Counted from the first letter of the stretch, positions 8,688-56,082 are shown. The stretch is DNA of 64,000 nucleotides from Cyanobacteria bacterium P01_A01_bin.123 (GCA_039815185.1 JBCBZT010000022.1:59792-123791), one strand, 5' to 3'. A program made the numbers and translations. Notes: generated by a model not told the origin, from the letters alone.

Positions 8688-11279
8688 ATGCCAACCCCAC
8701 CCCGCCTGCCCGCCAACTTGAAGGTGCTCGGCAAGAGCAAAACGCTATCAACAGTGTCTGATAGAGCTTTGGAAACCGTTGACGAGCGGGCAGAAACTTT
8801 GTCATCACGCCACGGTGAAGACGATTTAAGCACTATTGATGCCCTGCAAGAGATGGGCGCGAGCCGGGTTGATAGCCGCATGGGGATTCTGCGCAGTCAG
8901 CTTTTCTTCATGCTCTTTAGTCGCCTGCCCTACCCGGTGATTATGGTGCTGCCTTTCATCCATAAGGATGGCAAGCTGCTCATTCGGCAGTTGCAATGGC
9001 GTAGGGGCCGTCAGAAATTGACCGATGAGGCGACTGAAACAGACACCTCGACATCCGAGGCTGTGGATAGGCAGCGTCAAACCCTGATTCAAAAGGAACC
9101 ATCCCCCTATCTGCGATATCGCTGTCCTGACCATCCATTAACCTGTTCCCAGCTCGACCAAACGCAGCCAGCAGGGGACGCGGTTAATCATTGCCAACAG
9201 TGTGGATTTCCAGGGCTACTGCCAGAAAATGCTGAAATTCGAGGCCAGCAGGGGCGGTATCGGGTGGGTCGTTTTCTGGGCAGTCGGGGGCTGGGGCGTC
9301 TCTATACTGGGCAAGACGTGAATCGTCAGCAACCCGTGGTAATTCGGGAATACTTGCTGCCGGTTCAACACTTCAACGCTGCCGAACAGCATCTCACTCG
9401 CAATACCTTTGAAACCATTGCCGGACTCAAGTTAGCAGATGGTCGAGAACAGGATTTTCGACTGATGGAGCCCTGGGACGTGATTGGCGATCGCAATGAC
9501 CCAGAGCGCTGCTATCTGATTACCAAGGGTGCCGTCGACACTTTCCCGACCTTGCGGTCTGTGTTGGTTCAGCAAGGTGCCCTGAAACCTAGCCAAGTAC
9601 GCCAGATTCTCAACCAAGTGTTGCAAACCCTGGAATCTCTCCATGGTCAGACCTATGTGTTGCCCGCGGGGCAAATTCAAAAGGGGTTGGTGCATGGCAA
9701 CCTGAACTTAGACAGCATCGTGATCTTGCCGGATGCTGATTCGTATTATGAACAGCCCCAACTCCTGGCATTTGTCAGAGACTTGGCACTCTGGGAGTCA
9801 CTGTTTATCCCGCCCCCCGCCCCCGCCCAGATTTCGCAAGCCAAAGATGACCGGGTTGCCTTGGGGCAGATTGGTTTGTCTTTGCTGGTTGGACACTGGA
9901 ACGACGAATATGGTCGTCCCCTCAAGCCCCGCAGTGCTCAAGTGTGGCCCGGCAAAGATCTGCCCTTAGAACAATTTCTACGACAGCTGCTGGATATCGA
10001 AGCGCCTACCTTTGCAAGTGCCACTGAGGCTCGACAGGCCTTGTTGCAACTGCCGCCACTACCTACAACCCCATTGACGTCGTTGCAGGCAGTGGCTCCC
10101 GCTGAGCCCACCCGCACCCGGCGGTTGCCGCTATGGGTTTGGCTCATACTGCTAGCGGGGTTGGTGGGGGTAATAGGGGCCGGATTGCTGGGATGGTGGT
10201 TGAGTCGCCGTCGGGCGATCGCGAGTCAGCCCCCGTCAGTATGCTGTATTGCCGAGGTTGCCGCTGTGCCACCCGGTCAGTTTAATTATGCTGCCGCTCG
10301 CCAAGGAATCTGGTATCCCCTGTGGCACAGCAAAAATTTAGTGGTTCAGGGTAAAACGTTAGAGCAAGTCTTAGAGGCGGAACAATCGGATTTAAATCTG
10401 CAGTTGACGCCAGTGGCGAGCAGTCAAGTGGCGATCGATCAGGTGGGGCAAGATGGGGTTGATTTTGCGATCGCGCCTTTACCCAATAACCGGCCAACCG
10501 ATGTCACCATTGAACCGATTGCTTATGATGGGCTAGCCGTTTTTGTGGCCTTTAGCTACGTAGAACGTGAACAGGGCTTACCCCACCATCTACAGGGGCA
10601 AATTAGCCTGACGCAACTGCGCCAACTTTACACGGGTGAAATCACCAACTGGCAAGCCCTAGGTGGGCCAAATCTACCCGTTAAGCTCTATCTGCCCAAC
10701 CAACCTGAGCTGATCGAAATTTTTGAAGCGCGGGTGTTGCAAACGCCAGAGGCGATTCAAACGTTCCGACGGCTGTGGGGGTTAGAGATGGGGCAAACTT
10801 CTAGTCGTGCCGACAGCTTTATTAGTCGTCCAGAGATAGAGACAACTGATGGCGAAATGCTCCCTACCTTGGAGATGTTGACACAAACCCTAGAAGACTT
10901 TGAAGCGGAGGCTCAAATTGGCAGTATTGGCTTTGCCAGCCTCAGCCAAGTCTATGGCCAATGTTCGGTCTATCCCCTGGCAATCGCAGCGGATGATGAT
11001 GATGATGGGGTTCAACCCCTGTACCAACAGGATGGCACCCCGATTTCGCCAGCCGCTGATCTTTGTAGCGATAAGGGCAACTATGGCCCGGCGCAATCGC
11101 TGTTTGCCAATCAAACGTATCCATTGGCCTACCCCCTAGCGGTGCTTTATCGGCCAGATAATAGTCGTTTACCGATTGGGCCTATCTTTGTGCAAATGAT
11201 GACCACGGATGAAGGTCAACAGATATTGGGTAAGACGGGATTGGTGCCTTTAGTGGAGCGGCAAAATCAAGTTGATTAA
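8688..11279 (+). CDS. Membrane pseudokinase fused to PstS-like (PBP2) substrate-binding domain
   Basis: Cys cluster (C..C..CQQCG). Kinase-like fold with Gly loop LGSRGLGRLY but degenerate catalytic motifs (VVIR, HGN, DLA). One TM helix (LWVWLILLAGLVGVIGAGLLGWWL). PstS-like motifs IAYDGLAVFV, QLRQLYTGEITNWQALGG and YPLAYPL. Confidence 0.75.
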   Translation: MPTPPRLPANLKVLGKSKTLSTVSDRALETVDERAETLSSRHGEDDLSTIDALQEMGASRVDSRMGILRSQLFFMLFSRLPYPVIMVLPFIHKDGKLLIRQLQWRRGRQKLTDEATETDTSTSEAVDRQRQTLIQKEPSPYLRYRCPDHPLTCSQLDQTQPAGDAVNHCQQCGFPGLLPENAEIRGQQGRYRVGRFLGSRGLGRLYTGQDVNRQQPVVIREYLLPVQHFNAAEQHLTRNTFETIAGLKLADGREQDFRLMEPWDVIGDRNDPERCYLITKGAVDTFPTLRSVLVQQGALKPSQVRQILNQVLQTLESLHGQTYVLPAGQIQKGLVHGNLNLDSIVILPDADSYYEQPQLLAFVRDLALWESLFIPPPAPAQISQAKDDRVALGQIGLSLLVGHWNDEYGRPLKPRSAQVWPGKDLPLEQFLRQLLDIEAPTFASATEARQALLQLPPLPTTPLTSLQAVAPAEPTRTRRLPLWVWLILLAGLVGVIGAGLLGWWLSRRRAIASQPPSVCCIAEVAAVPPGQFNYAAARQGIWYPLWHSKNLVVQGKTLEQVLEAEQSDLNLQLTPVASSQVAIDQVGQDGVDFAIAPLPNNRPTDVTIEPIAYDGLAVFVAFSYVEREQGLPHHLQGQISLTQLRQLYTGEITNWQALGGPNLPVKLYLPNQPELIEIFEARVLQTPEAIQTFRRLWGLEMGQTSSRADSFISRPEIETTDGEMLPTLEMLTQTLEDFEAEAQIGSIGFASLSQVYGQCSVYPLAIAADDDDDGVQPLYQQDGTPISPAADLCSDKGNYGPAQSLFANQTYPLAYPLAVLYRPDNSRLPIGPIFVQMMTTDEGQQILGKTGLVPLVERQNQVD

Positions 11280-11309
11280 GCATAAAGCGTGTTGGAAATT
11301 TCTGTACGG

Positions 11310-13178
11310 TTACTCATTCAACCCCGTTGCCTGCTTTTGCAACTGCAACGCTGCAAACGCCCGCTGAAAATGGTCTGTCGTAATTTGAATCTGCGTGGGA
11401 TCCTCACCCCCCTGAGCCCGATAATCCCGCACTGCCTCCAACGCGGCTTGATTGCTCATCAATGCCAGATCGGCTCCGTTCCAATCTTGGGTTTGCACAG
11501 CCCACACCGCCAAATCCACATCCGACAAAGGCCGCGCTTGATTATGCACTTGCAAAATCGCCAGACGGCTGTTGGTGTCCGGTAGCCCGACTTCAATCTG
11601 CAAATCTAAGCGTCCTGCCCTCAGCAAAGCCTTGTCTAACGCTGCGGGGCGATTGGTTGCACCGATCAGCAACACATTTGTCGCGGCTTGCAAACCGTCC
11701 AACTCAGTTAGTAATTGACCCACCACGCGATCGCTCACCCCAGAATCCCCAGAGAACTGTCCCCGCACTGGAGCCAATGTGTCGATTTCATCGATAAACA
11801 CCACACAGGGCGACGCCTGCCGCGCCTTCGCAAACAGTTCACGCACGGCCTGTTCTGCCGCACCCACCCAACGACTCAACAACTCTGGCCCATTGACGGC
11901 AATGAAATTAGCTCGTGCTTGCGAAGCAACCGCCTTAGCCAACAGCGTTTTACCCGTCCCTGGGGGTCCCCACAGCAGCAACCCGCGCGGCGCTTGGGCC
12001 TTAGTCTGTTGATATAGCTCAGGATAGAGTAATGCCCCTTCCACTGCTTCTTGCAAGGTCTGCTTGATCGGCTCTAATCCGCCAATTTCGTCCCACTTGA
12101 CATGGGGCGATTCCACTTCCACTGCCCGTAATACGGAGGGCTTGATCGCCTTGATCGCCTGGGCAAAATCACTTTGGTTTAAACTCATCTCATCCGGCGT
12201 GGGATGATCCAGGGAAGGGAATTGTCGGCGCAGGGCTGTATAAGCCGCTTTTTGACACAAAGCTTTGAGATCGGCCCCCACTAGACCGACCGCTTGATCC
12301 GCGATCGCTTCCAAATCCACCGTTCCATCCAGCGGCATTTGCCGAGTCAGAATCTGCAAAATCTCCAAGCGGCCCTGACGATCCGGTACGCGAAACCGCA
12401 CTTCTCGATCAAACCGACCGGGGCGACGTAGGGCAGGGTCCAGGTGATCGGGGCGATTGGTAGCAGCGAGGACAATCACCCCTTGCGTTTCGGCGAACCC
12501 ATCCATCAAACTGAGTAATTGCGCCACCAACCGCTTTTCCACTTCCCCTTCAACCTTGCTGCGATCGGGGGCGAGACTGTCGATTTCGTCGATAAACACA
12601 ATGCAGGGGGATGCCTTAGCTGCCTTTTCAAAGATGCTGCGCAGTCGCCCTTCCGCTTCACCGTAGTATTTGCCCATTACCTCAGGGCCAACAATGGCAA
12701 TGTAGTTGACGCCTAGGGTCTCCGCCAGCGATCGCGCTGTTAGCGTTTTCCCCGTCCCCGGCGGCCCCACGAGCAACACGCCACGGGTGGGTTCTAACCC
12801 CAGCTTTGCCAGTAAATCTGGGCGTTTCAGCGGAATTTCTACCAGTTCCCGCAGTTCTTGCAGCACATCTGCCAAACCACCCACGTCTTTGAGTGAAGGC
12901 GTTTTTGAGGCTTCACTGCCTGCCGCTGTGCTCTCAACGGCATCCGCTGGTGGTGGGGTAATAATCACGTCTTCAGCAGCAGGGTCTTGCTTTGGCTGAG
13001 GAGTCCGATCCATGCGGCTCACCCCAATATCATTAGGAATATTGCCCTGACGAGGAATATTACTCATCGTGCGAGAATTAATCCGCACATCGGCCTTAAG
13101 TTCGCCCTTTTCTGCCTTTTCCTCCAGGGTTTTTGCCAGCTCAATTAGTTGTTCAAAGCCTTTGAAGAAGTCGCTCAT
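11310..13178 (-). CDS. CDC48/VCP-type double AAA+ ATPase
   Basis: Two GPPGTGKT Walker A motifs, two FIDEID Walker B motifs, SRH ALRRPGRFDRE / ALLRAGRLD. ATG at 13178 preferred over TTG at 13187. Confidence 0.9.
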   Translation of the reverse strand: MSDFFKGFEQLIELAKTLEEKAEKGELKADVRINSRTMSNIPRQGNIPNDIGVSRMDRTPQPKQDPAAEDVIITPPPADAVESTAAGSEASKTPSLKDVGGLADVLQELRELVEIPLKRPDLLAKLGLEPTRGVLLVGPPGTGKTLTARSLAETLGVNYIAIVGPEVMGKYYGEAEGRLRSIFEKAAKASPCIVFIDEIDSLAPDRSKVEGEVEKRLVAQLLSLMDGFAETQGVIVLAATNRPDHLDPALRRPGRFDREVRFRVPDRQGRLEILQILTRQMPLDGTVDLEAIADQAVGLVGADLKALCQKAAYTALRRQFPSLDHPTPDEMSLNQSDFAQAIKAIKPSVLRAVEVESPHVKWDEIGGLEPIKQTLQEAVEGALLYPELYQQTKAQAPRGLLLWGPPGTGKTLLAKAVASQARANFIAVNGPELLSRWVGAAEQAVRELFAKARQASPCVVFIDEIDTLAPVRGQFSGDSGVSDRVVGQLLTELDGLQAATNVLLIGATNRPAALDKALLRAGRLDLQIEVGLPDTNSRLAILQVHNQARPLSDVDLAVWAVQTQDWNGADLALMSNQAALEAVRDYRAQGGEDPTQIQITTDHFQRAFAALQLQKQATGLNE

Positions 13179-13400
13179 AGTACTCAAGGGGTAAAGAACC
13201 GGATGCTGATAGGGTTCCCAATTACCCTATGAAGAAGACAAATCCTGGCGTAGTGAACCTTTGCAATCCGGAACCGACACCCACGGGTCAGTGTCTACCA
13301 TGATGATTGCAACACCAGTGATTGCAACATTGGGTGGCGTCAGCCTTACAAGGAGTCACCCTTTAAACTACATGCTTATCCCAAACGGAGTTCAACCAAG

Positions 13401-13943
13401 ATGGCGCTATTGAAGAAGATTGTAGGCGGCTTAGTCGGCATTGTTGTGCTGGTTATTGCCGCCGGTTTTTTACTACCGAGTACGGTGCATGTTGAGCGGG
13501 ACATCGTTATTGATGCCCCCCCAGCCAAAGTCTTTGCGCTCATCAGCGATTTTGAAGCTTGGCCAGCCTGGTCACCCTGGGCCGATCTTGATCCTGAAGC
13601 GACGATGGAGATTACTGGGTCTGGCCTGGGTCAAACGATGAATTGGACTAGTACCGATCCTGATGTCGGGATCGGCTCTCAACAAATTGTGCAGCTCGAT
13701 TCACCCAGCTTATTGAAAACCCATTTAGAGTTTGGCGAGCTCGGCATGGCCGATGCCCTGTTTGAACTCACACCCGCAGATGACCAAACTAAAGTCACAT
13801 GGTCATTGGATACGGATATGAGAGAAGGCGTACCTTTATGGCTACAACCCGTTAATACCTACCTTGGTTTTTTGATGGATTCAATGGTTGGCGAAAGTTA
13901 CGAACAAGGCCTTGAAAATCTCAAAACTGCCGTTGAGAGTTAA
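13401..13943 (+). CDS. SRPBCC/polyketide cyclase family protein with N-terminal anchor
   Basis: VERDIVIDAPPAKVFALISDF..WSPW and C-terminal YEQGLENLK; GGAG ribosome-binding site upstream. Confidence 0.85.
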   Translation: MALLKKIVGGLVGIVVLVIAAGFLLPSTVHVERDIVIDAPPAKVFALISDFEAWPAWSPWADLDPEATMEITGSGLGQTMNWTSTDPDVGIGSQQIVQLDSPSLLKTHLEFGELGMADALFELTPADDQTKVTWSLDTDMREGVPLWLQPVNTYLGFLMDSMVGESYEQGLENLKTAVES

Positions 13944-13955
13944 GCGTTAAGCGCC

Positions 13956-14129
13956 TCATTCCACCACTCGCAGGCGGCCTTGGTTCAATTCTTCGTATAC
14001 CCGATTGAGCAAGGCCGCATCATTATCGCTCAAACCACTGCTGTAAAGAGACATCAGCAGTCGTTGGTCGTAGCGGGTAATACGACGAGTCGCAAATATT
14101 TTTTCAACAGCCTCTGTAATAGACATCAT
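13956..14129 (-). CDS. Small (57 aa) cyanobacterial-type hypothetical protein
   Basis: MSITEAVEKIFATRRITRYDQRLLM..LLNRVYEELNQGRLRVVE resembles a recurrent small cyanobacterial family (recognition from memory). Confidence 0.65.
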   Translation of the reverse strand: MMSITEAVEKIFATRRITRYDQRLLMSLYSSGLSDNDAALLNRVYEELNQGRLRVVE

Positions 14130-14522
14130 AGAACTGCACAATGAACTTTTAGTCAACGGGGTTCAGAAGGTTTCTTGTAATGCCCCCTGGAAGAATTAGA
14201 AAAGAATTAGAATAAATTCTGCACTGAACCTACTGTTCCACTTTAGACAAGATAGACAGACAAAACATCAGTGATAAACCCTATTCTCAAGCTGTCTGAT
14301 GTCACCGAGCGGATAGCGGCAAAGACTTATCCAAGCTAATGATCATCGCTTAAATCAGTCGATATGTTGTTGCTGAAATGCCATCAAATTAGAACCTTCA
14401 CAGATTTTTTACTCAAGCTCAATCTTGTAAAGCGAGGATAAATCAAGCCTCTGTACTAACACTGATGTCCTTAGGTGATCTGAGCTAGCTAAATCAGGTT
14501 GATTACGCAGTTTCCGCCTGTG

Positions 14523-14627
14523 TATAGCGCTGGCCAGATTGCTTAATGCACCTAGTATCGCTGGGATGCTCAACACACAGGCAATCTGGCTCGCCGTAGC
14601 GCACAAAGCTTTGTGGCTACGGCCATA
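14523..14627 (-). mobile_element. 105-bp palindromic MITE-like element, copy 1
   Basis: Its reverse complement aligns without gaps to 16064-16168 with 11 mismatches (manual count). Internal hairpins GCCAGATTGC..GCAATCTGGC and CACAAAGCTTTGTG. Confidence 0.75.
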
Positions 14628-37137: not shown

Positions 37138-40100
37138 GTGCAACTTGTTAAACCCCAGTGGACGCAAATCCTGCCAGATCGGCTAAATCAGCTCTTGCTG
37201 CTAGCAGCAACAATGCTGATCTATAGCGTGCTGGGGATGGCGATCGGTAATTCCTTATTTGTGAGCTATGTCGGGGCTGAACACTTGCCACTGGCATTTC
37301 TGCTGATTGGGTTGTGCTCAATGCCTGCCTATGTGCTGTTTTCTCAGGTTGTCGATCGCTATAGTCGTCCTCAGTTATTTCGGTATGTGCTGCTGGGGTC
37401 AATTTTTGTTGCATTAGGGCTGCGCCTGTTGCTGTTGCAAGAAGCACCCTATGCCTATTACATTCTGCTGATCGCCGTCTTCTTTCAGTGGGACTTCCAT
37501 AACAATGTGTTGTATCCCAGCTTGCTGACTGACTATTTCACAACGCAGGAATACAAGCGGTATGCGCCTTACATTGGCATTGCCCAGGCCGTGGGGATGC
37601 TGGTAGGCGGCGGGTTAACGACACTGCTATCGCACTATCTCCGAACACGAGACTTACTGTTGTGTTTACCCATCGTGTTTGCCCTGGGCATTGCACAGCT
37701 ATTACTTTTAGAAAGTTCTCAACGCCAGTTGACCGTAACCAAATCAGAACCTGTTGTCAGCGTTTTAGAATCTCTGCAAACGTTTCCTGAGTTGGTTAAG
37801 CGTTATCCATTGGCGCTGTTTCTAGCCAGCAGTAGCTTTCTGCTGGTGATCATCTATATCAGCTCTGAGTTTTTGTGGTTTAACATCTATGGCGATTATT
37901 TCAGCGACCAGGCGCTGACTGGCTTTTTGGGCCTAATGCGAATTGTCATTAGCGTTGTACAGATGGTCGTGATTTATGGGGTGACACGACCTTTGTTAAA
38001 AACAGTGGGTGTGGCTCAGATGAATTCAGTCTATCCCCTCACAACCTTGATTAGCTTTGTTGGCTTGATGTCTCATTTTGGTTTGCCTGCGGCGATTGGC
38101 CTCCATATCAACGGGGATGCATTCTACAAAGCGATTAATTTGCCAGTCCACCAGCTCAACTACAATGCCATTCCCCGTGAATTTATTGGCCGGATTCGAG
38201 CCCTCAGTGACGGATTCATTTACGCTATCGGGCTAACACTAGCTGGGGTGCTGTTATGGGTCTGCGAAACCCATTTGAGCCTGTTACAAATTACCTGGAT
38301 AGTGGCAGGGTTAGCATTTCTGCTGATGTTGGTGCGGATACCGATGGGACGGTTTTATGCCAGCGGTCTTGAAGAGATGATTCGCTCTAACAGCATCAAT
38401 CTAGATGAATTTGATGCTTACCCGATTCCGTTGTCGCCCCAGTCTGGAGAAGCCGTCAGAGAGCTATTGACTGATACAGACCGCTATACCCAGCTTAAGG
38501 GGCTGGAGCTAGCAGCCAGAATGAACCAGGCCAGTGAGTTTTTAACTGAGGTAGAGGCGTTAGTTCCGGGCGCAGATATTCAAGTTTATGAAGCGGCGAT
38601 CGCGTTGTTTGCCAATTGCCCCGACCTGCTCAATCACTTCAAACAGCGGCTGCAAGCGCCTGCCCTAAATGCCTTTGCCTTAGAAGTTTTGCTGATCAAC
38701 CAATACATCCCGAGTCAAAGACAGGTTGACACTTGGTTAGGCAGTCCGCAAAAAGCGCTGCGAGTGCTGGGAGCTATTGCCCAAATCATCACTGACCCCT
38801 CATCTGCCCCAACCTGGCCTGTAGAACTTGATAGCATTACTGCGCGCATTGTGACTCGTGTAGTTGCCTACAGCAACAACCCCACATTGCCCCCCCTGAT
38901 TCCTCAGGTCATCCTGACTCAATCTAGCTCAGACATTATTTGTGCTGGGTTAGAAGTGCTACTACCCCTGACTCAGCGCGCTGATCAGACCGTTGCTACC
39001 ATCGCTCAAGCCAAACTAGAGCATGCGGATCCAATGGTGCGAATGGCAGCCTTTGACCTGCTGCGGGCAACCCGCTGCCCAGAACAGCTGACAGCAGTGA
39101 GCCAAGGTTTGGGGGATGCAGATCCACGGGTGCGTCAACGGGCTGCCACTGCTTTAGCCGCCTATGGTCGGTCGGGTCTAGCACTGGCCAAAGCAAGTCT
39201 GACGGCTTCAAAAGTCGAAGTCGTCAACACTGCGATTATCGCCATTGGCCTAGTGCGAACCAAATATGCCAGCAATCTATTATTCGACTATCTGGCTCCC
39301 AGTTATAAACAACTTGCCCAGACGCGTAAATGGCAGCAGCAAATTCCTACAAATGACCCCAGATGGCAACCGCTCAGGGTTGCTATTGTTGATTATCACG
39401 AGCGCTTGATTCAAAAAGTCTTGTATGTCCTCTCGGCCCTGGGATACGCTCGTACCGTGAATACGGTTAATCGATTGCTGGCAATTAATGACCAAAGCGA
39501 ACTCGAAAATGCGATTGAGGTGCTGGCCTCGCTCAACCATCGACGTTTTGTCATGCCGTTAATGCCATTGTTTGAAGAACGGAGTGCCCCTGAGCCATCC
39601 GCTAGTCGCATTCAAGCAACTCCCCAATGGCTGAGAACGAAGGGCTATCGTCTCTTGCTTGAGGCTTTAGAATCGAAGGATCGATGGATCAAAATCGGTG
39701 CCTTGATTGCCCTATCGATGGTACCTTCAGCCCTGGTGAATGATCCTGATCCGTTTGTTAAACAGGTTGCCAGTCAGATTTTTGGTGCAATTGATCAATC
39801 AACCTTACCCACGAATACTGCTATGAACCGATTGCTACTGCTCAAAAATGTAGCGCTCTTTAAGAACCTTTCCCTTGACGAGTTGCTGCTGATTGACAAG
39901 AGCCTGGAGCAAACTCAGGTATTAGCAAGCAGAACTATTTTCGCCGAAGGCGACTGGGGCTCCCACCTCTACATTATTGCTGATGGCACTGTGCAGCTGG
40001 TCAAAAATATTGATGGTAACCTCCGCAAACTCAAGCAGCTTCAGCAGGGCCAATATTTTGGCGAGGTGGCGCTATTTGACAATGCACCTCGTTGGGATGG

Positions 40101-40311
40101 AGCCATTGCGCTTGAAGATTGCACCTTACTCAAATTAGAAAAGAGCCGCTTCCTCAGCCTGATTACCCAGCGTCCCCATATCATTTTAGAAATCTGTCGG
40201 TTCCTCAGCCAACGCCTTAGAGAAACCGACAAACATCATTCTGAGAAAGCATTAGCTATCTCAACCGGATCTTCTGAATCCGATAGTAGCAAAACCATTA
40301 CCCACAACTAA
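37138..40311 (+). CDS. MFS/NTT-like membrane domain + HEAT repeats + cyclic-nucleotide-binding domain protein
   Basis: About 12 hydrophobic segments in the first ~410 aa; HEAT repeats (DPMVRMAA, DPRVRQRAATAL); cNMP domain LKNVALF..IFAEGD..LYIIADGTV..FGEVALFDNAPR. Confidence 0.82.
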   Translation: MQLVKPQWTQILPDRLNQLLLLAATMLIYSVLGMAIGNSLFVSYVGAEHLPLAFLLIGLCSMPAYVLFSQVVDRYSRPQLFRYVLLGSIFVALGLRLLLLQEAPYAYYILLIAVFFQWDFHNNVLYPSLLTDYFTTQEYKRYAPYIGIAQAVGMLVGGGLTTLLSHYLRTRDLLLCLPIVFALGIAQLLLLESSQRQLTVTKSEPVVSVLESLQTFPELVKRYPLALFLASSSFLLVIIYISSEFLWFNIYGDYFSDQALTGFLGLMRIVISVVQMVVIYGVTRPLLKTVGVAQMNSVYPLTTLISFVGLMSHFGLPAAIGLHINGDAFYKAINLPVHQLNYNAIPREFIGRIRALSDGFIYAIGLTLAGVLLWVCETHLSLLQITWIVAGLAFLLMLVRIPMGRFYASGLEEMIRSNSINLDEFDAYPIPLSPQSGEAVRELLTDTDRYTQLKGLELAARMNQASEFLTEVEALVPGADIQVYEAAIALFANCPDLLNHFKQRLQAPALNAFALEVLLINQYIPSQRQVDTWLGSPQKALRVLGAIAQIITDPSSAPTWPVELDSITARIVTRVVAYSNNPTLPPLIPQVILTQSSSDIICAGLEVLLPLTQRADQTVATIAQAKLEHADPMVRMAAFDLLRATRCPEQLTAVSQGLGDADPRVRQRAATALAAYGRSGLALAKASLTASKVEVVNTAIIAIGLVRTKYASNLLFDYLAPSYKQLAQTRKWQQQIPTNDPRWQPLRVAIVDYHERLIQKVLYVLSALGYARTVNTVNRLLAINDQSELENAIEVLASLNHRRFVMPLMPLFEERSAPEPSASRIQATPQWLRTKGYRLLLEALESKDRWIKIGALIALSMVPSALVNDPDPFVKQVASQIFGAIDQSTLPTNTAMNRLLLLKNVALFKNLSLDELLLIDKSLEQTQVLASRTIFAEGDWGSHLYIIADGTVQLVKNIDGNLRKLKQLQQGQYFGEVALFDNAPRWDGAIALEDCTLLKLEKSRFLSLITQRPHIILEICRFLSQRLRETDKHHSEKALAISTGSSESDSSKTITHN

Positions 40312-40863
40312 ACGACCTCACCCAAAAGAGTCTGTTTTTTCTAGGTTCAGCCCATAGACAGCCGTAAGGTAGATGGAGGAAGCGGTTGTTGTTCAAGCTT
40401 GGTGCATTATTTACTGGTTCATCTGCACTATTGCATCAGCTCCCAAGGCTGGCACTTTTCTTGTGGGTAGCTACATGTGACTTGCATCAACAGAACCTGC
40501 TACTACAATCACCCCAAACCTGCAAAAGAATCACCTTACTTTAAAGCCTAAATCACTTTCTGGAAGGGGCTTTCAGCTCATAATATTAGCAATTTCCGGT
40601 TGTGCAGTAGAGAAATATGGGGAAATCTATCACATCCGCTCAGGCTCTTTTAGACAGATATTTTTAACCAAAAGCAAAGAAAGGCCAGAACCCTTTATAA
40701 ATTCAGATCCCACGCTTTACTGATTCATGACTTATAAAATGAGGCGTAGTAACATTATCGCTACTCAACTTCTCCTGGGGCAGACAATCTTTGACACTAA
40801 CGGTGGCGGCACGCCCAATTTTATCTCTATAAATATCTAGTATCCTCCCATAGGAACACAACG

Positions 40864-41901
40864 ATGAAAATTTCCTCTGTTGCCTATAGTGCTCCCTCAT
40901 GGAAAGTCAGTAATCAAGACCTACTCACTTTTATTGATAAAAGCAATCCTAAAGTATCGCCTTTAAAGAAGAAGCCCTATCTCAAAATAGTTGAAAAGCT
41001 GCTCAATCAAACAGGTGCTGTTTCTAGATACTGGCGAGATCCCAATATTAAGGAAAAAGCTTCAGATTTGATTCTATCAGCAATAGAGAAGTCGTTGACA
41101 CAAGCGAATCTAGTTGCTACAGATATTGATTTACTCATTTACTGCGGAGTGGGCCGAGGCTTTTTAGAACCGGCCAATGCTTACTTTTATGCAAATGCCA
41201 GTGGCATGCACACCGCGAATTGCTTTGATGTTACTGATGCCTGTATGAGCTGGATTCGCGCGGCCCAAATCGCACAGCTAATGATGAATTCAGGCGCTTT
41301 TAAGCGGGTTATGATCATCAATGGTGAATTTCACTTAGGCTTTCATGACAATTGGGATATTAGAGATATTCGTACCCTAGAGTATTCGTTTCCGATGTAC
41401 ACCATTGGTGAAGCGGCGACAGCCACAATCTTAGAGCCTGGAGGAGACGACTGGACCTTTGCGTATTCTTCTAAACCTGAGTTTTCAGATTTGTGCACGA
41501 TTCCATTGCCGAGTCATAAAAACTTTGTTGAACCCAGTGACAAAATTAGCCACAACGGCATCTATCGCTTTGTTTCCTATGGCAGAGAGCTGTTTCAGCA
41601 GGGGGTTATTTGTTTGGGTGAGTTAGTTCAGGACACCATCAAAGATGCTAAACAGAATGTTCTTTATTTTCCCCATGCACCCTCTAAAAAAGTCTATGAG
41701 GAAGAAATGCCAAAATATGGAATTCCTGCCGAAAAAATCTACTTAGAGGTTTACCCTGAGTTTGGTAATTTGGTTTCTGCAAGTATCCCGGTTGGACTGA
41801 GTAGAGCCGCCAAAGCTGGTCAGATAAAGCGAGGCGATCCTATTGCGTTAATTCCGGCAAGTGCTGGGCTTGTTTCATCGGTGGTACAGCTTATCTTTTA
41901 A
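40864..41901 (+). CDS. OleA-like / KAS III-family condensing thiolase
   Basis: GRGFLEPANA (Glu motif like OleA YLEPSTA), FDVTDAC (catalytic Cys), FPH (His), GNLVSASIP (Asn). Confidence 0.85.
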   Translation: MKISSVAYSAPSWKVSNQDLLTFIDKSNPKVSPLKKKPYLKIVEKLLNQTGAVSRYWRDPNIKEKASDLILSAIEKSLTQANLVATDIDLLIYCGVGRGFLEPANAYFYANASGMHTANCFDVTDACMSWIRAAQIAQLMMNSGAFKRVMIINGEFHLGFHDNWDIRDIRTLEYSFPMYTIGEAATATILEPGGDDWTFAYSSKPEFSDLCTIPLPSHKNFVEPSDKISHNGIYRFVSYGRELFQQGVICLGELVQDTIKDAKQNVLYFPHAPSKKVYEEEMPKYGIPAEKIYLEVYPEFGNLVSASIPVGLSRAAKAGQIKRGDPIALIPASAGLVSSVVQLIF

Positions 41902-41940
41902 GAATTCTATTTTCATTTTCTCTATTTTGGGCGAACTGCA

Positions 41941-43050
41941 ATGCCGATTCAGACTCAACCCCGACGAGTTTTCTTGACTAGCCTTGGGTTCACCATTGCA
42001 TATATGGTTCCGGCCGTCCCTCTCATCAGCATTTGGGTGGGTCAGATAGTGGGGCATCCTAATGTTTTTGCTGCTTTGCCGCTGGCGATCGCCTATATTC
42101 TAGTGCCTATTGTTGAAGGTATTTGGCCCTATGGTATTCAGCCCATGCCAACTGAGAAATGGAATGTGACCAGCTGGCAGTTCTATTATCGAGCCTTGCT
42201 TTGGCTGAGTTTCCCGATTCAGTTGGGTATGCTGTGCATCGCTCTGCATTTTTGGTCTTTGGGTTTGCTCAATGCTTGGGGTAGCCTCGCCTATATCCTC
42301 TCGGTTGGTATCTTTAGCGGCATGTTTGCTATCACCATTGGGCATGAGCTTATTCATCACTCCCAGCCTGTTGATTGCGCTTTGGGAGGTGTTTTACTGT
42401 CAACGGTTTGTTTTGGAACCTTCAAAATTGCCCATCTCCGCATTCACCATCGGTATGTGTGTACCCCTGATGATTTTGCGACGGCTAAAAAAGGCCAGAG
42501 CATTTATCACTTTTGGTGGATCAATAGGGTCGCCAATATAACGGAGGCACTCCGTTGTGAGCGGGAGGATTTGGCTAAACAGGGGAGACAATTCTGGCAA
42601 AGTGAACTGTTGCTATGGACGGTATTGAGTTTGCTTTGGTTTGCGATCGCCATTCGATTGGGCGGTTGGTGGGGTGGATTGTTCTTTGGCCTGCAATCAT
42701 TCATTGCCATTCTTAAGCTGGACTGGACCAATTATCTGCAACATTATGGTCTTACCCGAAAGCTAGATGCTAAGGGAAAGTATGAGCCTGTTCAGCATCA
42801 CCATGCTTGGTCTGTCGGCCTTTTTATTCATGATTTGGCGATTTTTAATTTATTGCGCCACGGTGATCATCATGTCAATCCTCAGCGGCCTTATCCGTTT
42901 CTAGAGCACGACAACCGCACCCGTGAGTATCCCTATAACTATTCGGTAATGTATCTTCTTTCTCTCTTACCCGGTGTGTTTGAAAACGTTGTGCATCCCT
43001 ATTTAAACAAACCAGAAACCTTAGCCCAGCCCCTTCAAGAGGCTGCCTAA
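41941..43050 (+). CDS. AlkB-like membrane di-iron monooxygenase/desaturase
   Basis: His boxes GHELIH, AHLRIHH, NYLQHYGL (HYG motif), LLRHGDHH; also TPDDFATA and YEPVQHHHAW. Confidence 0.87.
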   Translation: MPIQTQPRRVFLTSLGFTIAYMVPAVPLISIWVGQIVGHPNVFAALPLAIAYILVPIVEGIWPYGIQPMPTEKWNVTSWQFYYRALLWLSFPIQLGMLCIALHFWSLGLLNAWGSLAYILSVGIFSGMFAITIGHELIHHSQPVDCALGGVLLSTVCFGTFKIAHLRIHHRYVCTPDDFATAKKGQSIYHFWWINRVANITEALRCEREDLAKQGRQFWQSELLLWTVLSLLWFAIAIRLGGWWGGLFFGLQSFIAILKLDWTNYLQHYGLTRKLDAKGKYEPVQHHHAWSVGLFIHDLAIFNLLRHGDHHVNPQRPYPFLEHDNRTREYPYNYSVMYLLSLLPGVFENVVHPYLNKPETLAQPLQEAA

Positions 43051-43053
43051 ACG

Positions 43054-43827
43054 ATGATTATTCTGATTACAGGGGCATCTTCAGGCATTGGCCGCAAGCT
43101 GGTGTTGCATTATCTTAAGCAGGAGCATACCGTCGTTGCCATAGCCCGCAGAGAACACAAGCTAAAGGATCTGCGGCAAGCGGTTTCCAATCCTGACAAG
43201 CTCAAGCTGTTTCCTGCAGATGTGACCGACAAAGCTCAGATGCAAGCCGCGATCGCAACAATTGAAGAAACCGTGGGACCGTTAGACTTAGTCATCGCCA
43301 ATGCTGGCGTCACGACCCAACACCTAACCCCCCAGCTGGATTTGGTCGCGTTCGAGCAGCTGATGAATACCAATGTTATGGGTTCTCTTTATACGCTGGT
43401 GCCCGCAACGCAGGCCATGATGCCGCGAGGTCACGGTCAGGTGGTGGCAATTTCTAGCTTAGCGGCCTTTCATGCCTTTCCCCGCATCAGCACCTACTGC
43501 GCGACCAAAGCCGCACTCAATGCTCAAATTTCAGGCCTTTACTGGAGCCTTAAGCCCTATGGCATCCAGGTCACCACCATTTGCCCAGGGTTTGTTGAAA
43601 CAGAAATGACCCTGGGGCAGCAAGTGCCTAAAGTGTGGTGCTTAAAAGCCGATAAAGCGGTTGAGAAAATTGTGCGTGCGATCGCGCAAAAACGCCGACT
43701 CTATCGATTTCCCTTTTGGCAATCGCAGCTGGTCGGGCTCCTTAACCTCCTGCCGCCAGCCCTCAATGGTTACCTCTATCGCACGGCTATTGAAAAAGCC
43801 TTCCCTCGCCCTGTCTTTTCAAAATAG
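43054..43827 (+). CDS. Short-chain dehydrogenase/reductase
   Basis: TGASSGIG, ANAG, ISS, YCATK, ICPGFVET; starts 3 bp after the AlkB-like stop. Confidence 0.92.
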   Translation: MIILITGASSGIGRKLVLHYLKQEHTVVAIARREHKLKDLRQAVSNPDKLKLFPADVTDKAQMQAAIATIEETVGPLDLVIANAGVTTQHLTPQLDLVAFEQLMNTNVMGSLYTLVPATQAMMPRGHGQVVAISSLAAFHAFPRISTYCATKAALNAQISGLYWSLKPYGIQVTTICPGFVETEMTLGQQVPKVWCLKADKAVEKIVRAIAQKRRLYRFPFWQSQLVGLLNLLPPALNGYLYRTAIEKAFPRPVFSK

Positions 43828-43873
43828 AGACTTTTTTGGAACCGCCTTACTCTCCCCTGAGCCCCCTCATACC

Positions 43874-45010
43874 ATGACTTCAGTTGTTGAGCCTACACAA
43901 CCTCTTCTTAATCTGGGTTATCAGCTTGGCCTAATTGGCTTTACTCGTCTGAGTAACATCATCCGGCTGAGCCACTATGCCATTGGGATGCATCCCCGCT
44001 ATCTGTTGCGCCTGCTGTTGGTGGTGAGCTCTAGTGTGGTGAGCCTGCCCCTGCGGCTGGCTGAAAAGATCTTCTATGGTCGCAAAATCACTCAAACCCA
44101 GATTGAAAATCCGCCTATTTTTATCATTGGTCACTGGCGCAGCGGCACCACCTATTTGCACAATCTTATGACTCAAGACCCTCACTTTGGTTACTTGTCC
44201 ATGTACCAAGCCGTGGTTCCTGACTGCTCACTGATTGGCCACAACTGGCTGCGGCAACTGCTTGCGAAAATTATGCCGATTAAACGGCCCATGGACAATG
44301 TGCTCTGGCCGATGGAAGGGCCACAGGAAGACGAAGTAGCCCTGGCAAAAGTCATGGCGACTGGTTTCTACACCCAATTTCTTTTTCCGAGTAAAGCCCG
44401 CCATTTGTTTCGTAAGTTTGTGCTGATGGAAGGGGCTTCGGCTAAAGATGCTGATGAATTTAAACGCAGCTATCTACAACTGATGAAAGTCGCCACGATT
44501 AAAGCCGATGGTAAACCGCTCATCCTCAAGAACCCTGTGAATACAGCGCGAATCCGGTTGCTATTAGAACTCTTTCCCGATGCCAAGTTTGTCCATATTC
44601 ACCGCTCGCCCTATGACGTATTTAAATCGGCTAGCTACTTACACCAGAAACTATCCGTGTTGACAACGCTGCAAACCATCGATGCTCAGCGAGCCGATGA
44701 AACCGTACTTATTCTCTATGAAGAGATGATGCAGAGATATCTTCAAGATCGCACACTGATTCCGGCTGGGAATTTGGTTGAAGTGCGCTACGAAGACCTA
44801 GAGAGTCGTCCTATGGATATTATCCAGCGAATCTACAGCGAGCTCGATTTGCCCAGCTTTGAAGAGAATATTCCTATCTTTGAGGCTTTTTTAGAAGCTC
44901 AAAAGTCTTATCAAAAAAATAACTTTAGCCTATCTGCTGAAGCCAAACAAAAAGTCGAACAGCATTGGGGCTTTGCGTTGTCTGAATTTGGCTATTCTCT
45001 ACCCGTTTGA
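43874..45010 (+). CDS. PAPS-dependent sulfotransferase (Sulfotransfer_3, Stf3-like)
   Basis: PPIFIIGHWRSGTTYLHNL (5'-PSB loop), LKNP, FVHIHRSPYDVFKS (3'-PB), VRYEDL; ATG 43874 preferred. Confidence 0.9.
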   Translation: MTSVVEPTQPLLNLGYQLGLIGFTRLSNIIRLSHYAIGMHPRYLLRLLLVVSSSVVSLPLRLAEKIFYGRKITQTQIENPPIFIIGHWRSGTTYLHNLMTQDPHFGYLSMYQAVVPDCSLIGHNWLRQLLAKIMPIKRPMDNVLWPMEGPQEDEVALAKVMATGFYTQFLFPSKARHLFRKFVLMEGASAKDADEFKRSYLQLMKVATIKADGKPLILKNPVNTARIRLLLELFPDAKFVHIHRSPYDVFKSASYLHQKLSVLTTLQTIDAQRADETVLILYEEMMQRYLQDRTLIPAGNLVEVRYEDLESRPMDIIQRIYSELDLPSFEENIPIFEAFLEAQKSYQKNNFSLSAEAKQKVEQHWGFALSEFGYSLPV

Positions 45011-45025
45011 CCTGAGAATGGATTC

Positions 45026-45283
45026 ATGGGGCCATTCACGCTGATGTCTAGCGCCGAGGCTGCAGATCTGCTGGCTGATCTCGAGCAAACCCTGGCTCAA
45101 GAATCTACGGTTTATCCTCATTCTCAGGGAGCTTACGTGATTGAAGCGACGGATCAAAAAGTTTCGACAACCGTCGGCCGTAGCAATTACGAAACTAGCT
45201 ATTGGGCGATGAATTATCGCGATCGCCATTTAGACTCGCTGGCTGTGCTGGACTTATTTCAACATCTTGCACTCACTGTTTGA
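45026..45283 (+). CDS. Small hypothetical protein or gene fragment inside the lipid cluster
   Basis: 85-aa co-oriented ORF filling the gap between the sulfotransferase and desaturase; no motif recognised. Confidence 0.4.
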   Translation: MGPFTLMSSAEAADLLADLEQTLAQESTVYPHSQGAYVIEATDQKVSTTVGRSNYETSYWAMNYRDRHLDSLAVLDLFQHLALTV

Positions 45284-45355
45284 GACAGGTCACTTTATTC
45301 CGATTGAAACCCCTGAGTTGTTTACTGCTCACTTAGCTAAAGCCTTGAAGACGCC

Positions 45356-46393
45356 ATGACTGCTCAATCAACAACGCACGTAACATCCTTACCCAAGACT
45401 GGCGAAGATGACTATGCAGGTAATCTAACGATTGGGCTGCCCGTTAACGTTCTGCAAGAATTGGCGAAAGTCAATGTGATCACAGCGGTGGTTGCGATCG
45501 CCTCAGAATGGCTCGCAATTTTTGGCGCGATCGCCCTCTGCCATTTTTTCTGGCATCCGCTGCTGTACCTTGTTATCGTCATGTTCATCGGTGGTCGGCA
45601 GCACGCCCTAGCCGTGTTACAACACGAGGCAGCTCACTACCACTTGCTTCCCAATCGATACTGGAATGATGGGGTAGCAGAACTGCTGCTGGCATGGCCA
45701 ATTTTGTTATCCAATCAAAATTTTCGCTCGTATCACTTTCCCCATCATCGTTATATAGGGACTGAAAAAGATGGGAATCGAGCCCAATATGGAACCCATA
45801 CTCCCGCAGGTGAACTACGACCTACTTGGTCCTTTCCTAAAGCAAAAAAGCAGTTTGCAATTTGGCTCATCATTCGCCTTTTTGGCATTGGTGGCCTTGT
45901 TTACATCCTGCGTTCTTTCCGTCGCCTCCTGACCCAGGGCTCTGTGAGCTATCGATTAGCAAATCTATTTTACTATGTCGGCATTTTGAGCCTCATTCTT
46001 TGGCTCCAGGGCGGGCAATTATTGCTGCTGTACTGGTTTGTTCCTTTGTGCACCTGGTTTATTTTTACTAATATCCTACGTATTGCTGGAGAGCATAGTG
46101 CCATCGCAACCTCTGATGCGCTTGAAACATCCCATGGATTTTATGGCCTCACCCGCACAACGCTACCCTCCTGGTTCGATCGGATCTTTGTTGTTCCTCG
46201 GCATATCTGCTACCACCTAGAGCACCATCTCTATCCCCATGTTCCCTTTTATCGTCTTCCAGATCTGCACAATCAACTCATGAACCTTGAACACTTCCAA
46301 AAACAGGCTTGTGTAACCCAGACCTATTGGCACACCTTGCAAGAATTGATTGTCTATAAATTTGTCTGGAAAATCCCTTTGAGCAAATCTTGA
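45356..46393 (+). CDS. Membrane fatty-acid desaturase family protein
   Basis: His boxes QHEAAH, YHFPHH, GEH, YHLEHHLYP. Confidence 0.9.
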   Translation: MTAQSTTHVTSLPKTGEDDYAGNLTIGLPVNVLQELAKVNVITAVVAIASEWLAIFGAIALCHFFWHPLLYLVIVMFIGGRQHALAVLQHEAAHYHLLPNRYWNDGVAELLLAWPILLSNQNFRSYHFPHHRYIGTEKDGNRAQYGTHTPAGELRPTWSFPKAKKQFAIWLIIRLFGIGGLVYILRSFRRLLTQGSVSYRLANLFYYVGILSLILWLQGGQLLLLYWFVPLCTWFIFTNILRIAGEHSAIATSDALETSHGFYGLTRTTLPSWFDRIFVVPRHICYHLEHHLYPHVPFYRLPDLHNQLMNLEHFQKQACVTQTYWHTLQELIVYKFVWKIPLSKS

Positions 46394-50656: not shown

Positions 50657-51514
50657 CTATTCTTGATAGCCCAAAGAGAGCATTTTGCTGCGACAGATAT
50701 GATTGATCCGGTCAAGATTTTTAGCGCCAAAGAAATCAATCCAAGATATATTTCGATTACCAATGGGTTGAAACTGATTATCTACGTATTCCTCAATATC
50801 AGTTGAATATTCAAGGCAGAGCTGGGTAGCAAGCCATCTAATAAATGCAACCTTGTCTGCCATAAAATCCTCATACCGAATTAGTTGTATTCTTTCTTTT
50901 TGGGTTTCATATAAGTCTATTGACGTTGTCCATCGATAAGCTAATTTCTCGATATAGTTATCCCCATCAACCTTAGGCAATTCACCTTCGAGAAGCAATC
51001 TCCAGGCGGTTCGCTCTGGCAAACTTTTCAATTGATCGTTATCCAATTGATCCAAGTTTCCTGGTATATCGAGTCGATTTAAAATGCTACGTATATTATC
51101 CCTCGGATCGCGCGCGATAAAAACAAATTGGGATTCAGAAAAGTTTTCTATTACGCTATTGATCATAAAAATAAAATATGGGTCTTTTATTATGGCTGTT
51201 GAAAAATGATGTTTGTTTTGATTAATGACTTCTTTAAAGGAGAGAGACCCTATTTGCATATCTTCTCTAATCTTGATAGAGCTATCTATCCTGTAGAAGG
51301 GATCAATCGTAACCGCTTGATTAGTTGCTTTGCCTAACAACGAGGCTATTACAGTCGTACCAGCCTTGGGATTTCCCAAGATGATTATTGGTTTAGGGTG
51401 TACAGTAGATGACCATCTTCTGTAGGCGGTCTTTAGTGACTCCAGTGGCGTGCTTAAATCACCCAGAGGATTTTTCAAAGAATATGGAAATTTTGTCATC
51501 GTTAAATATTCCAA
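50657..51514 (-). CDS. Sulfotransferase family protein (AT-rich gene)
   Basis: PIIILGNPKAGTTVIASLL, IKDP, FIARDPRDNIRS, IRYEDF. Confidence 0.82.
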   Translation of the reverse strand: MEYLTMTKFPYSLKNPLGDLSTPLESLKTAYRRWSSTVHPKPIIILGNPKAGTTVIASLLGKATNQAVTIDPFYRIDSSIKIREDMQIGSLSFKEVINQNKHHFSTAIIKDPYFIFMINSVIENFSESQFVFIARDPRDNIRSILNRLDIPGNLDQLDNDQLKSLPERTAWRLLLEGELPKVDGDNYIEKLAYRWTTSIDLYETQKERIQLIRYEDFMADKVAFIRWLATQLCLEYSTDIEEYVDNQFQPIGNRNISWIDFFGAKNLDRINHICRSKMLSLGYQE

Positions 51515-55545: not shown

Positions 55546-56082
55546 TTAGCCCAGATACTTCAGTTCCTTAAGTTTAGCCATGACTTTGCCCACACTTTCA
55601 TCTAGGGTTTCTAAATGGGTTTGGCAGTTAACCGCTGGGTTGAGTGGCGGTTCATAGGGATCATCGATCCCGGTAAAGTTTTTGATTTCTCCAGATCTAG
55701 CCCGCTTGTACAGACCTTTTACATCTCGTTCTTCACAGACTTCGAGCGGCGCACTGACGTAAACCTCAATCATGTCGCCGATCCGCTGATGCACCTCTTC
55801 ACGGATAGCGCGATAGGGCGAAATGGCTGAAACGAGCACAATTACGCCATTGCGGGTGAGCAAGTGAGAAACAAAGCCGATGCGGCGAATATTTTCATCG
55901 CGATCTTCTTTGCTAAACCCCAGTCCCTTAGTGAGATTAGTGCGAACGATATCTCCATCAAGCACTTCTAGCTTGCAATCTAACGATCGCAGTTCTTTCT
56001 CTAGCGCATCTGTAATCGTTGATTTACCTGCTCCACTTAAACCTGTCAGCCAAACGGTGACACCACGATGTTCAACAGCCAT
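55546..56082 (-). CDS. cysC: Adenylyl-sulfate kinase
   Basis: WLTGLSGAGKST, LDGDIVR, LGFSKEDRDENIRR, RDVKGLY, FTGIDDPYE. Confidence 0.97.
   Translation of the reverse strand: MAVEHRGVTVWLTGLSGAGKSTITDALEKELRSLDCKLEVLDGDIVRTNLTKGLGFSKEDRDENIRRIGFVSHLLTRNGVIVLVSAISPYRAIREEVHQRIGDMIEVYVSAPLEVCEERDVKGLYKRARSGEIKNFTGIDDPYEPPLNPAVNCQTHLETLDESVGKVMAKLKELKYLG

Follow-up and report, generated by a model that had tools for sequence, protein, structure and literature searches.

A conserved bacterial gene cluster with a predicted role in the synthesis of a sulfated head-to-head lipid

The draft genome of Cyanobacteria bacterium P01_A01_bin.123 (G000; 8.09 Mb in 133 contigs) carries, at positions 40864-46393 of the 64,000-nucleotide stretch analyzed here (the window, located in G000:C9), a cluster encoding a stand-alone ketosynthase (KS), an AlkB-like membrane oxygenase, a short-chain dehydrogenase/reductase (SDR), a sulfotransferase (ST), and an accessory membrane desaturase. 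Gene content and relatives likewise suggest a cyanobacterium. The first four genes likely act in one pathway, in which two acyl chains are joined head to head and released as a sulfated, soap-like lipid, and an uncharacterized lipid of this kind is the probable product of the cluster. This assignment draws on gene content, gene order, motifs, tree position, and deletions. The pathway is real, conserved, and uncharacterized, and is assembled from known enzyme families. A previous interpretation made from the DNA alone (the sequence-only reading) had proposed an undescribed lipid pathway without oleBCD, and this has held, since no description of the gene set was found in open-licence PMC and bioRxiv literature and G000 has no oleBCD.

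The cluster comprises five intact genes and two remnants, rather than six genes. Six plus-strand open reading frames (ORFs; 40864-41901, 41941-43050, 43054-43827, 43874-45010, 45026-45283, and 45356-46393) are separated by 39, 3, 46, 15, and 72 bp, and their Pfam assignments are, in order, KSIII, FA_desaturase, classical SDR, Sulfotransfer_3, none, and FA_desaturase. The orientation, close spacing, and upstream gap given in the sequence-only reading are thus correct, while its sixth gene is a remnant. The 552-bp intergenic stretch that precedes them (40312-40863, plus strand) is presumed to hold the operon promoter; no sigma-70 consensus site was found on its plus strand, and the promoter/terminator scan was uninformative, with one site found versus 8.8 expected. 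As had been stated earlier, no acyl carrier protein (ACP), AMP-binding, or alpha/beta-hydrolase Pfam match is present in the 9 + 40 window ORFs scanned.

The KS (345 aa; 40864-41901, plus strand) is placed by phylogeny and sequence comparison in a clade of its own, beside NocG and a PyrS-like protein and outside OleA. Its residues E102 (the glutamate of an LEP motif), C127, H271, and N302 fall, in alignment, on the catalytic positions of OleA from Xanthomonas campestris, the best sequence match in the PDB (E 4e-18), and are kept in 119, 120, 119, and 119, respectively, of the 120 homologues listed, so that the LEP glutamate and Cys/His/Asn set recognized in the earlier reading is confirmed. 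The available sections of two papers report that the glutamate is also required in PpyS (E105; PMC4578411) and in NocG (E100; PMC9486936), whose product is a beta-keto acid; the residue is therefore not peculiar to OleA. NocG is represented here by the KS of locus L089, found by a phylum search and taken as an orthologue because its E100/C125/H275/N304 set is exact and its neighbors are of the noc type (MtnB-like, kinase-aminotransferase, and fatty acyl-AMP ligase (FAAL) genes). PpyS was compared by description, and the PyrS-like representative in the trees is P0234, taken as such because its ends are encoded by the published pyrS primers and it holds Cys124. The window KS is 37.7% identical to the L089 protein, 34.9% to P0234, 20-24% to OleA-family proteins, and 20.7% to FabH from the same genome. 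The distance between E102 and C127 fits the rule of the NocG/PpyS group, where the glutamate lies 24-25 residues before the cysteine. In a 29-row IQ-TREE tree, the KS falls in a 19-row clade (100/100) with NocG and P0234, within which the core KS subclade (100/99) stands apart from the subclade of NocG and P0234 (99/100). Constraining the core subclade to the OleA rows was rejected (p-AU 0.0015, with a program warning of long branches), and the score against the OleA model PRK09258 (97.6 bits, cut-off 285) lies below membership. The label OleA-like, read as family membership, has thus been abandoned. An AF2 model of the KS (pLDDT 89.8) has the thiolase fold and matches FabH and OleA alike in a fold search (TM about 0.75-0.80 for both). 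Ordinary FabH was rejected as an identity for this protein, given the low identity to the FabH of the genome, which lacks the glutamate; in this the sequence-only reading is supported.

The second gene (41941-43050, plus strand) encodes an AlkB-like membrane diiron oxygenase of 369 aa, which matches FtAlkB over its full length (E 9e-38). Nine histidines in four motifs, together with two leucines, are kept in 78-80 of the 80 rows of the family alignment. These leucines, L260 and L304, correspond to L274 and L318 of FtAlkB, which are reported to place the methyl end of the substrate; members of this superfamily can either desaturate or hydroxylate (PMC10110569, available sections). The third gene (43054-43827, plus strand) codes for an SDR of 257 aa, which, from its TGxxxGIG motif and intact tetrad N107/S135/Y148/K152, is of the classical type and not an OleD-type extended SDR; it gave no match to the OleD-like ORF of the oleABCD set at L193. 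Mycolate reductase CmrA was discarded as an identity for it (NF040690, 94.5 bits versus a cut-off of 380, tenth among the SDRs of the genome).

The fourth protein (378 aa; 43874-45010, plus strand) is a predicted ST dependent on 3'-phosphoadenosine 5'-phosphosulfate (PAPS), with a Sulfotransfer_3 domain (E 3.6e-38) and the sequences GHWRSGTT at residue 86 and HIHRSPY at residue 241, which are presumably the PAPS-binding motifs. Its matches of solved structure are two mycobacterial enzymes (E 5e-12 and 7e-8), and its similarity to the CurM ST is limited to E 0.003 over about 100 residues. It is called Stf3-like from the names of its homologues, many of which carry Stf3-derived automatic names (JGI). 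Stf3 sulfates a hydroxyl made by the neighboring hydroxylase Cyp128 (PMC7404182, in part), and an enzyme of the Stf3 clade is predicted to sulfate notonesomycin (PMC7081687, in part). A natural fusion of SDR and ST also exists (P0385), with 45% and 53% identity to the respective window proteins.

The strongest evidence that these four genes belong together is their conservation. Among the genome loci examined (the best 80 of 319), 22 group with the window at a support of 0.999 in a 219-row tree, from which the partial L052 and L060, L094 and L109 (no usable match), and representatives outside 330-365 aa were omitted; L052 (71%) was added by identity, giving 23 core-clade loci. Three of their contigs end too early, and 17 of the remaining 20 keep the order KS, AlkB-like, SDR, ST, counting the decayed L012 and L002 with its frameshifted ST. 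This order is far beyond chance, and bears out the co-conservation that the sequence-only reading required. The syntenic core was found in Cyanobacteria, Planctomycetota, Alphaproteobacteria, and Gammaproteobacteria. The AlkB-like gene adjoins the KS gene on its downstream side in 21/22 core loci and the SDR is kept in 20/22, while the other 57 KS loci show an ST in none and an AlkB-like gene in one. Identity values of the AlkB-like protein, SDR, and ST rise and fall with those of the KS (Spearman 0.87-0.90, n=16-20, for kin that are not independent). In metagenomes (80 loci), ten full-length matches of at least 55% show the same order as far as their contigs reach; five reach the ST, two are too short for any neighbor, and some may duplicate genome loci. 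These metagenome loci were obtained with an alignment query, a scan with a single KS protein having given no match, and Atlas searches returned only generic family names.

The KS family is rare: it was found in one of 40 relatives, as a broken piece, and in three of 144 in one family, and 400 sampled genomes of the phylum held no core KS (two matches were of the NocG type). This patchy spread suggests horizontal transfer. The GC content at third codon positions of the KS gene (0.40, near the 5th percentile of 2895 long ORFs) is a weak sign of the same, the other cluster genes being ordinary. Near-identical and 80-85% homologues of the cluster proteins exist elsewhere.

Downstream of the ST, the window copy has lost genes that are whole in its relatives. 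Positions 45014-45277 match codons 92-179 of a 406-aa SyrB2-like protein at 68% identity, leaving 88 of the 406 codons, and the remnant of this Fe(II)/2-oxoglutarate halogenase-type gene (45014-45283, plus strand) lacks the metal-binding part. The small ORF it contains (85 codons) is an internal piece of a protein of 383-417 aa that stands after the ST in relatives; an ACP or small accessory protein was rejected as its identity, as it has no Pfam match and is a halogenase fragment instead. The intact protein of the relatives finds SyrB2 (E 4.5e-27) and CytC3 as its best solved matches, with its HQA aligned to the HQA of SyrB2, reaches 143.8 bits on TIGR01762 (cut-off 226.3), and has a hydrophobic N-terminal extension. 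The apparent 72-bp gap, in turn, is occupied by the 3'-terminal 23-26 codons of an epoxide-hydrolase-like alpha/beta-hydrolase of about 420 aa (62-74%); this remnant (26 codons; 45279-45359, plus strand) ends in a stop that overlaps the start of the desaturase (ATGA), likewise in L005. Both remnants match genes whole in relatives, so a hydrolase gene and a halogenase-like gene formerly belonged to the cluster, and no close copy of either was found elsewhere in G000. The sequence-only reading overlooked these remnants, as well as the halogenase-rich versions in other cyanobacteria. The last gene (45356-46393, plus strand) encodes a membrane desaturase/hydroxylase of 345 aa with intact His boxes. 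The window-type desaturase is present in 5/23 relatives, and its former inclusion in the pathway core is not supported; other accessory genes include the hydrolase (6/23), a second desaturase-like gene (4/23), and FMO, P450, JmjC, and fatty-acid hydroxylase genes. The guanitoxin enzyme GntB was also considered for the desaturase and rejected (105.5 bits, cut-off 380), and no other gnt-like gene was seen in the window.

Ten cyanobacterial-type loci are long enough to be compared in this region, including L001 (titled 'uncultured bacterium') and L005 (titled 'Rhizobium') by tree position. At least one halogenase-like gene, from three classes, is found in 9/10, the remaining locus (L006) ending early. 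SyrB2-like genes occur in 8/10 (with stops in L002 and L012, and cut by the flank in L008), and HQA, that is, HxA in place of HxD/E, which we take to be the mark of a halogenase among SyrB2-like proteins, is present in L001, L002, L004, L007, L021, L052, and L114; it was not picked up in L012 and is cut off in L008. A FAD protein with a weak CmlS match (E 3.5e-18) and a WxWxIP motif, presumably that of flavin-dependent halogenases, is encoded in 4/10. Two of the ten encode a protein that shares 34.7% identity, over 415 aa, with the product of the gene at the expected position of the CylC-type halogenase in the noc locus; neither has a hidden Markov model (HMM) match, and the L052 copy is broken. 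The three halogenase-like queries gave no match in ten non-cyanobacterial core loci, and in seven of these, which have the four-gene core, the hydrolase and desaturase queries found nothing either. Carrier-less CylC homologues have been suggested to act on fatty-acid intermediates in a survey of CylC clusters, the available part of which lists no KS and AlkB architecture (PMC8406957). The sulfated lipid is probably chlorinated in relatives.

Cyanobacterial acyl metabolism is centered on acyl-ACP and, as the cluster has no ligase or carrier, the KS would probably use acyl-ACPs of ordinary fatty-acid synthesis. With E102 as the base, the role of this glutamate in NocG, PpyS, and OleA, a non-decarboxylative Claisen condensation would yield an alkyl-branched beta-keto acid. 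The SDR would turn the ketone into a mid-chain alcohol, with CO2 lost either ahead of this reduction or following it, the AlkB-like enzyme would hydroxylate a chain end, and the ST would cap one or both hydroxyls, the sulfate being retained in the product. Capping, rather than elimination, is suggested by the Acyl_transf_3 gene that occupies the ST slot in L049, and by the GT28 glycosyltransferase found beside 16/57 distant KS, mostly with an SDR. A capped and exported lipid would also fit the exporter genes that follow the core in L015 and L017 (HlyD and FtsX, with an ABC ATPase seen in L017) and in L049 (HlyD/RND). The halogenase-like, desaturase-like, and hydrolase genes of cyanobacterial versions may lead to chlorinated congeners, and the product of the window, where the halogenase and hydrolase genes are deleted, would be non-chlorinated and perhaps unsaturated.

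Several observations weigh against this proposal. Three of the 20 loci break the core, with KS and AlkB-like gene only in L011 (where an AurF-like ORF lies upstream, by eye), the KS alone in L019, and no ST in L049. Exporters follow the core in only 3/20 loci, and none stands beside the window cluster. The L012 copy, from a Prochloron metagenome-assembled genome, is decayed, and the window copy has itself suffered two deletions relative to L001, of about 0.35 kb and 1.9 kb. Nearly the same identity separates the KS from the pyrone synthase-like P0234 as from NocG, and the mycobacterial enzymes matched by the ST are other than Stf3. Terminal hydroxylation is uncertain, because the AlkB-like protein has Gln267 in place of a conserved glutamate near Fe1 (E281 of FtAlkB) in 80/80 rows, has no glutamate ahead of the second His box, and has no rubredoxin gene within the cluster. 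These last features, together with the versatility of the superfamily, would be expected if the AlkB-like protein were a desaturase or mid-chain oxygenase and only the alcohol made by the SDR were sulfated, giving a monosulfate of an unsaturated branched or mid-chain alcohol; the P0385 fusion likewise ties the sulfate to the SDR product. The full-length similarity to FtAlkB and the retained terminal-positioning leucines make this improbable. Somewhat less remote, but still unlikely, is that the window copy is what is left of a larger halogenase cluster in decay, and no longer yields a product. Its two deletions, the decayed copies in L012 and G021, and the patchy spread, with a single broken piece among 40 relatives, would agree with this. 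Nevertheless, none of the five remaining genes is shortened and their motifs are intact, homologues of up to near identity exist elsewhere, and seven non-cyanobacterial loci carry the bare four-gene core.

The two other explanations concern the fate of the condensed chain. In the hybrid alkene route proposed as one model by the sequence-only reading, the SDR would replace OleD and the sulfate would serve as leaving group for a decarboxylative elimination to an internal olefin. The KS chemistry would indeed yield an OleA-type beta-keto acid, and no oleABCD orthologues were found in the G000 draft (best 97.7 bits for the OleA HMM, cut-off 285, and 134 for the OleC HMM, cut-off 478; at most 30% identity to the L193 set), as had been claimed for oleBCD; moreover, the accessory hydrolase of 6/23 loci has a local match of 34% over 119 aa to an OleB-like protein. 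However, the hydrolase is deleted in the window and unmatched in 11/17 complete cores, an acyltransferase replaces the ST in L049, and G000 already encodes an aldehyde deformylating oxygenase. The olefin synthase (OLS) pairs its ST with a thioesterase (TE) on an ACP (PMC11837247, available sections) and the core has neither, nor does it encode an enzyme for the elimination; the ST is much nearer to mycobacterial enzymes than to CurM. As this route also leaves no role for the AlkB-like gene, the most constant partner of the KS, it is very unlikely, and the other earlier model, a sulfated amphiphile, fits best of the readings. A further possibility, given a small chance, is that the KS is a pyrone synthase of the PpyS/PyrS type and that the product is a dialkyl-alpha-pyrone, oxidized on its chain and sulfated. 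P0234 lies within the same 19-row clade, PpyS likewise works without a dedicated ligase (PMC4578411, in part), and an ST paralogue of G000 (34.7%) is encoded three genes from a DarB-family KS, so that ring-forming enzymes are also among the neighbors of this ST family. On the other hand, the core clade is separate from the subclade of P0234 and NocG, and it is hard to see which ketone of a pyrone would be reduced by the SDR, which is kept in 20/22 loci and once fused to the ST.

The proposed sulfated-lipid pathway resembles several known systems in part. NocG, of nocuolin A synthesis (PMC9486936, in part), is also a stand-alone KS with Glu/Cys/His/Asn from the same large clade (37-38% to the L089 orthologue), but has its own FAAL-ACP (NocH) and kinase-aminotransferase (NocF), instead of which the window has the AlkB-like protein, SDR, and ST; no FAAL or aminotransferase was present in the window ORFs scanned, and the subclades are separate. 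A NocG-type KS, 59% identical to that of L089, also lies in a different, FAAL-rich cluster (L090:1064-19749, G316). PpyS/PyrS share the head-to-head KS, the catalytic glutamate, and the lack of a dedicated ligase (35% to P0234), but belong to a separate subclade, and no reductase or ST is described for them in the available sections of PMC4578411. OleABCD has the same LEP glutamate and Cys/His/Asn and provides the best PDB match, but identity is 20-24%, the grouping is rejected, and oleBCD are absent from G000. The Cyp128-Stf3 pathway for sulfomenaquinone in Mycobacterium tuberculosis, as far as the available text describes it, also pairs a hydroxylase with an adjacent Sulfotransfer_3 enzyme, by which the newly made hydroxyl is capped; there, a P450 acts on existing menaquinone, whereas in the window the oxygenase is a membrane diiron protein and the cluster has a condensing enzyme of its own. 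The ST-TE modules of CurM/OLS likewise use an ST after ketoreduction on an acyl chain, but are embedded in a polyketide synthase, ACP-bound, and TE-paired (PMC11837247, in part), with weak ST similarity, and the window has no ACP/TE module.

The likeness to chlorosulfolipids, which are chlorinated alkyl sulfates, lies in the combination of ST and halogenase-like genes in relatives of the cluster. Danicalipin A is a chlorinated alkyl sulfate whose parent is docosane 1,14-disulfate (PMC5632803, in part), and a cyanobacterial origin of these compounds has been supposed (PMC10077240, in part); no chlorosulfolipid genes were found in the literature searched. It is conceivable, although doubtful, that these genes provide bacteria with a route to chlorosulfolipid-like compounds, where KS, reductase, and terminal oxygenase would give an alkane diol, the ST a (di)sulfate, and carrier-free halogenases of three unrelated classes (SyrB2-like, CylC-like, and flavin-dependent) would chlorinate it in cyanobacteria, the window being a natural halogenase-deletion version. 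The danicalipin chain is an even C22. Two even-chain acids joined with loss of CO2 give an odd chain, and any compound made here would accordingly be an analogue rather than danicalipin itself.

Besides the cluster, other features of the window and genome were recorded. The 3' end of the desaturase gene (46393) overlaps a convergent VWA gene by 40 bp. Nine kb from the cluster lies cysC (55546-56082, minus strand), the only match in G000 for the adenylyl-sulfate kinase of PAPS supply, a linkage that may be chance. Just upstream of the intergenic region, 37138-40311 encodes a 1057-aa membrane protein with HEAT repeats and cyclic-nucleotide binding, not seen beside the clusters of relatives. A second, unrelated ST (50657-51514) has low GC (0.376) and is probably a separate acquisition, and 255-7019 holds a 2254-aa ORF with two stretches of core domains of extracellular contractile injection systems and strong AT skew. 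On contig C119 of G000 (L103:6990-11758), the KS near the ST paralogue is of the StlD/DarB family (451 bits, cut-off 450), making this a candidate sulfated dialkylresorcinol cluster.

Among the relatives, the L012 copy (10001-14590) has a 5'-truncated KS, split AlkB-like and ST genes, 27 codons of SDR, and a halogenase-like gene with a stop, and the lone KS of L019 (9908-11038), in Cohaesibacter, is an insertion with the secE/nusG region on one side and tufA on the other. Distant KS genes lie directly upstream of a hybrid histidine kinase/response regulator in L066, L069-L073, L077, L078, L080, and L085 (also L053, L055, and L059), in 9/57 genome loci by strict count; those of L071 and L066 group weakly with the PyrS-like protein, and these loci are candidate signal synthase/receptor pairs. 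In a spirochaete subclade (L020, L022-L028, L031-L033, L035, L036, L038, and L064), the KS is divergent from GT28, mostly with an SDR, a candidate glycolipid pathway.

The cultured strain Pseudanabaena sp. PCC 6802 is named for homologues of the AlkB-like protein (P0415, 55%) and the ST (P0307, 60%), as separate entries, which makes the prediction testable by LC-MS. These head-to-head KS make up an uncharacterized clade whose tailoring core is fixed across at least three phyla, and from which a class of natural anionic surfactants can be predicted. If cyanobacterial versions do chlorinate their product, they would provide candidate genes for chlorosulfolipid-like compounds, together with halogenases that act without a dedicated carrier.

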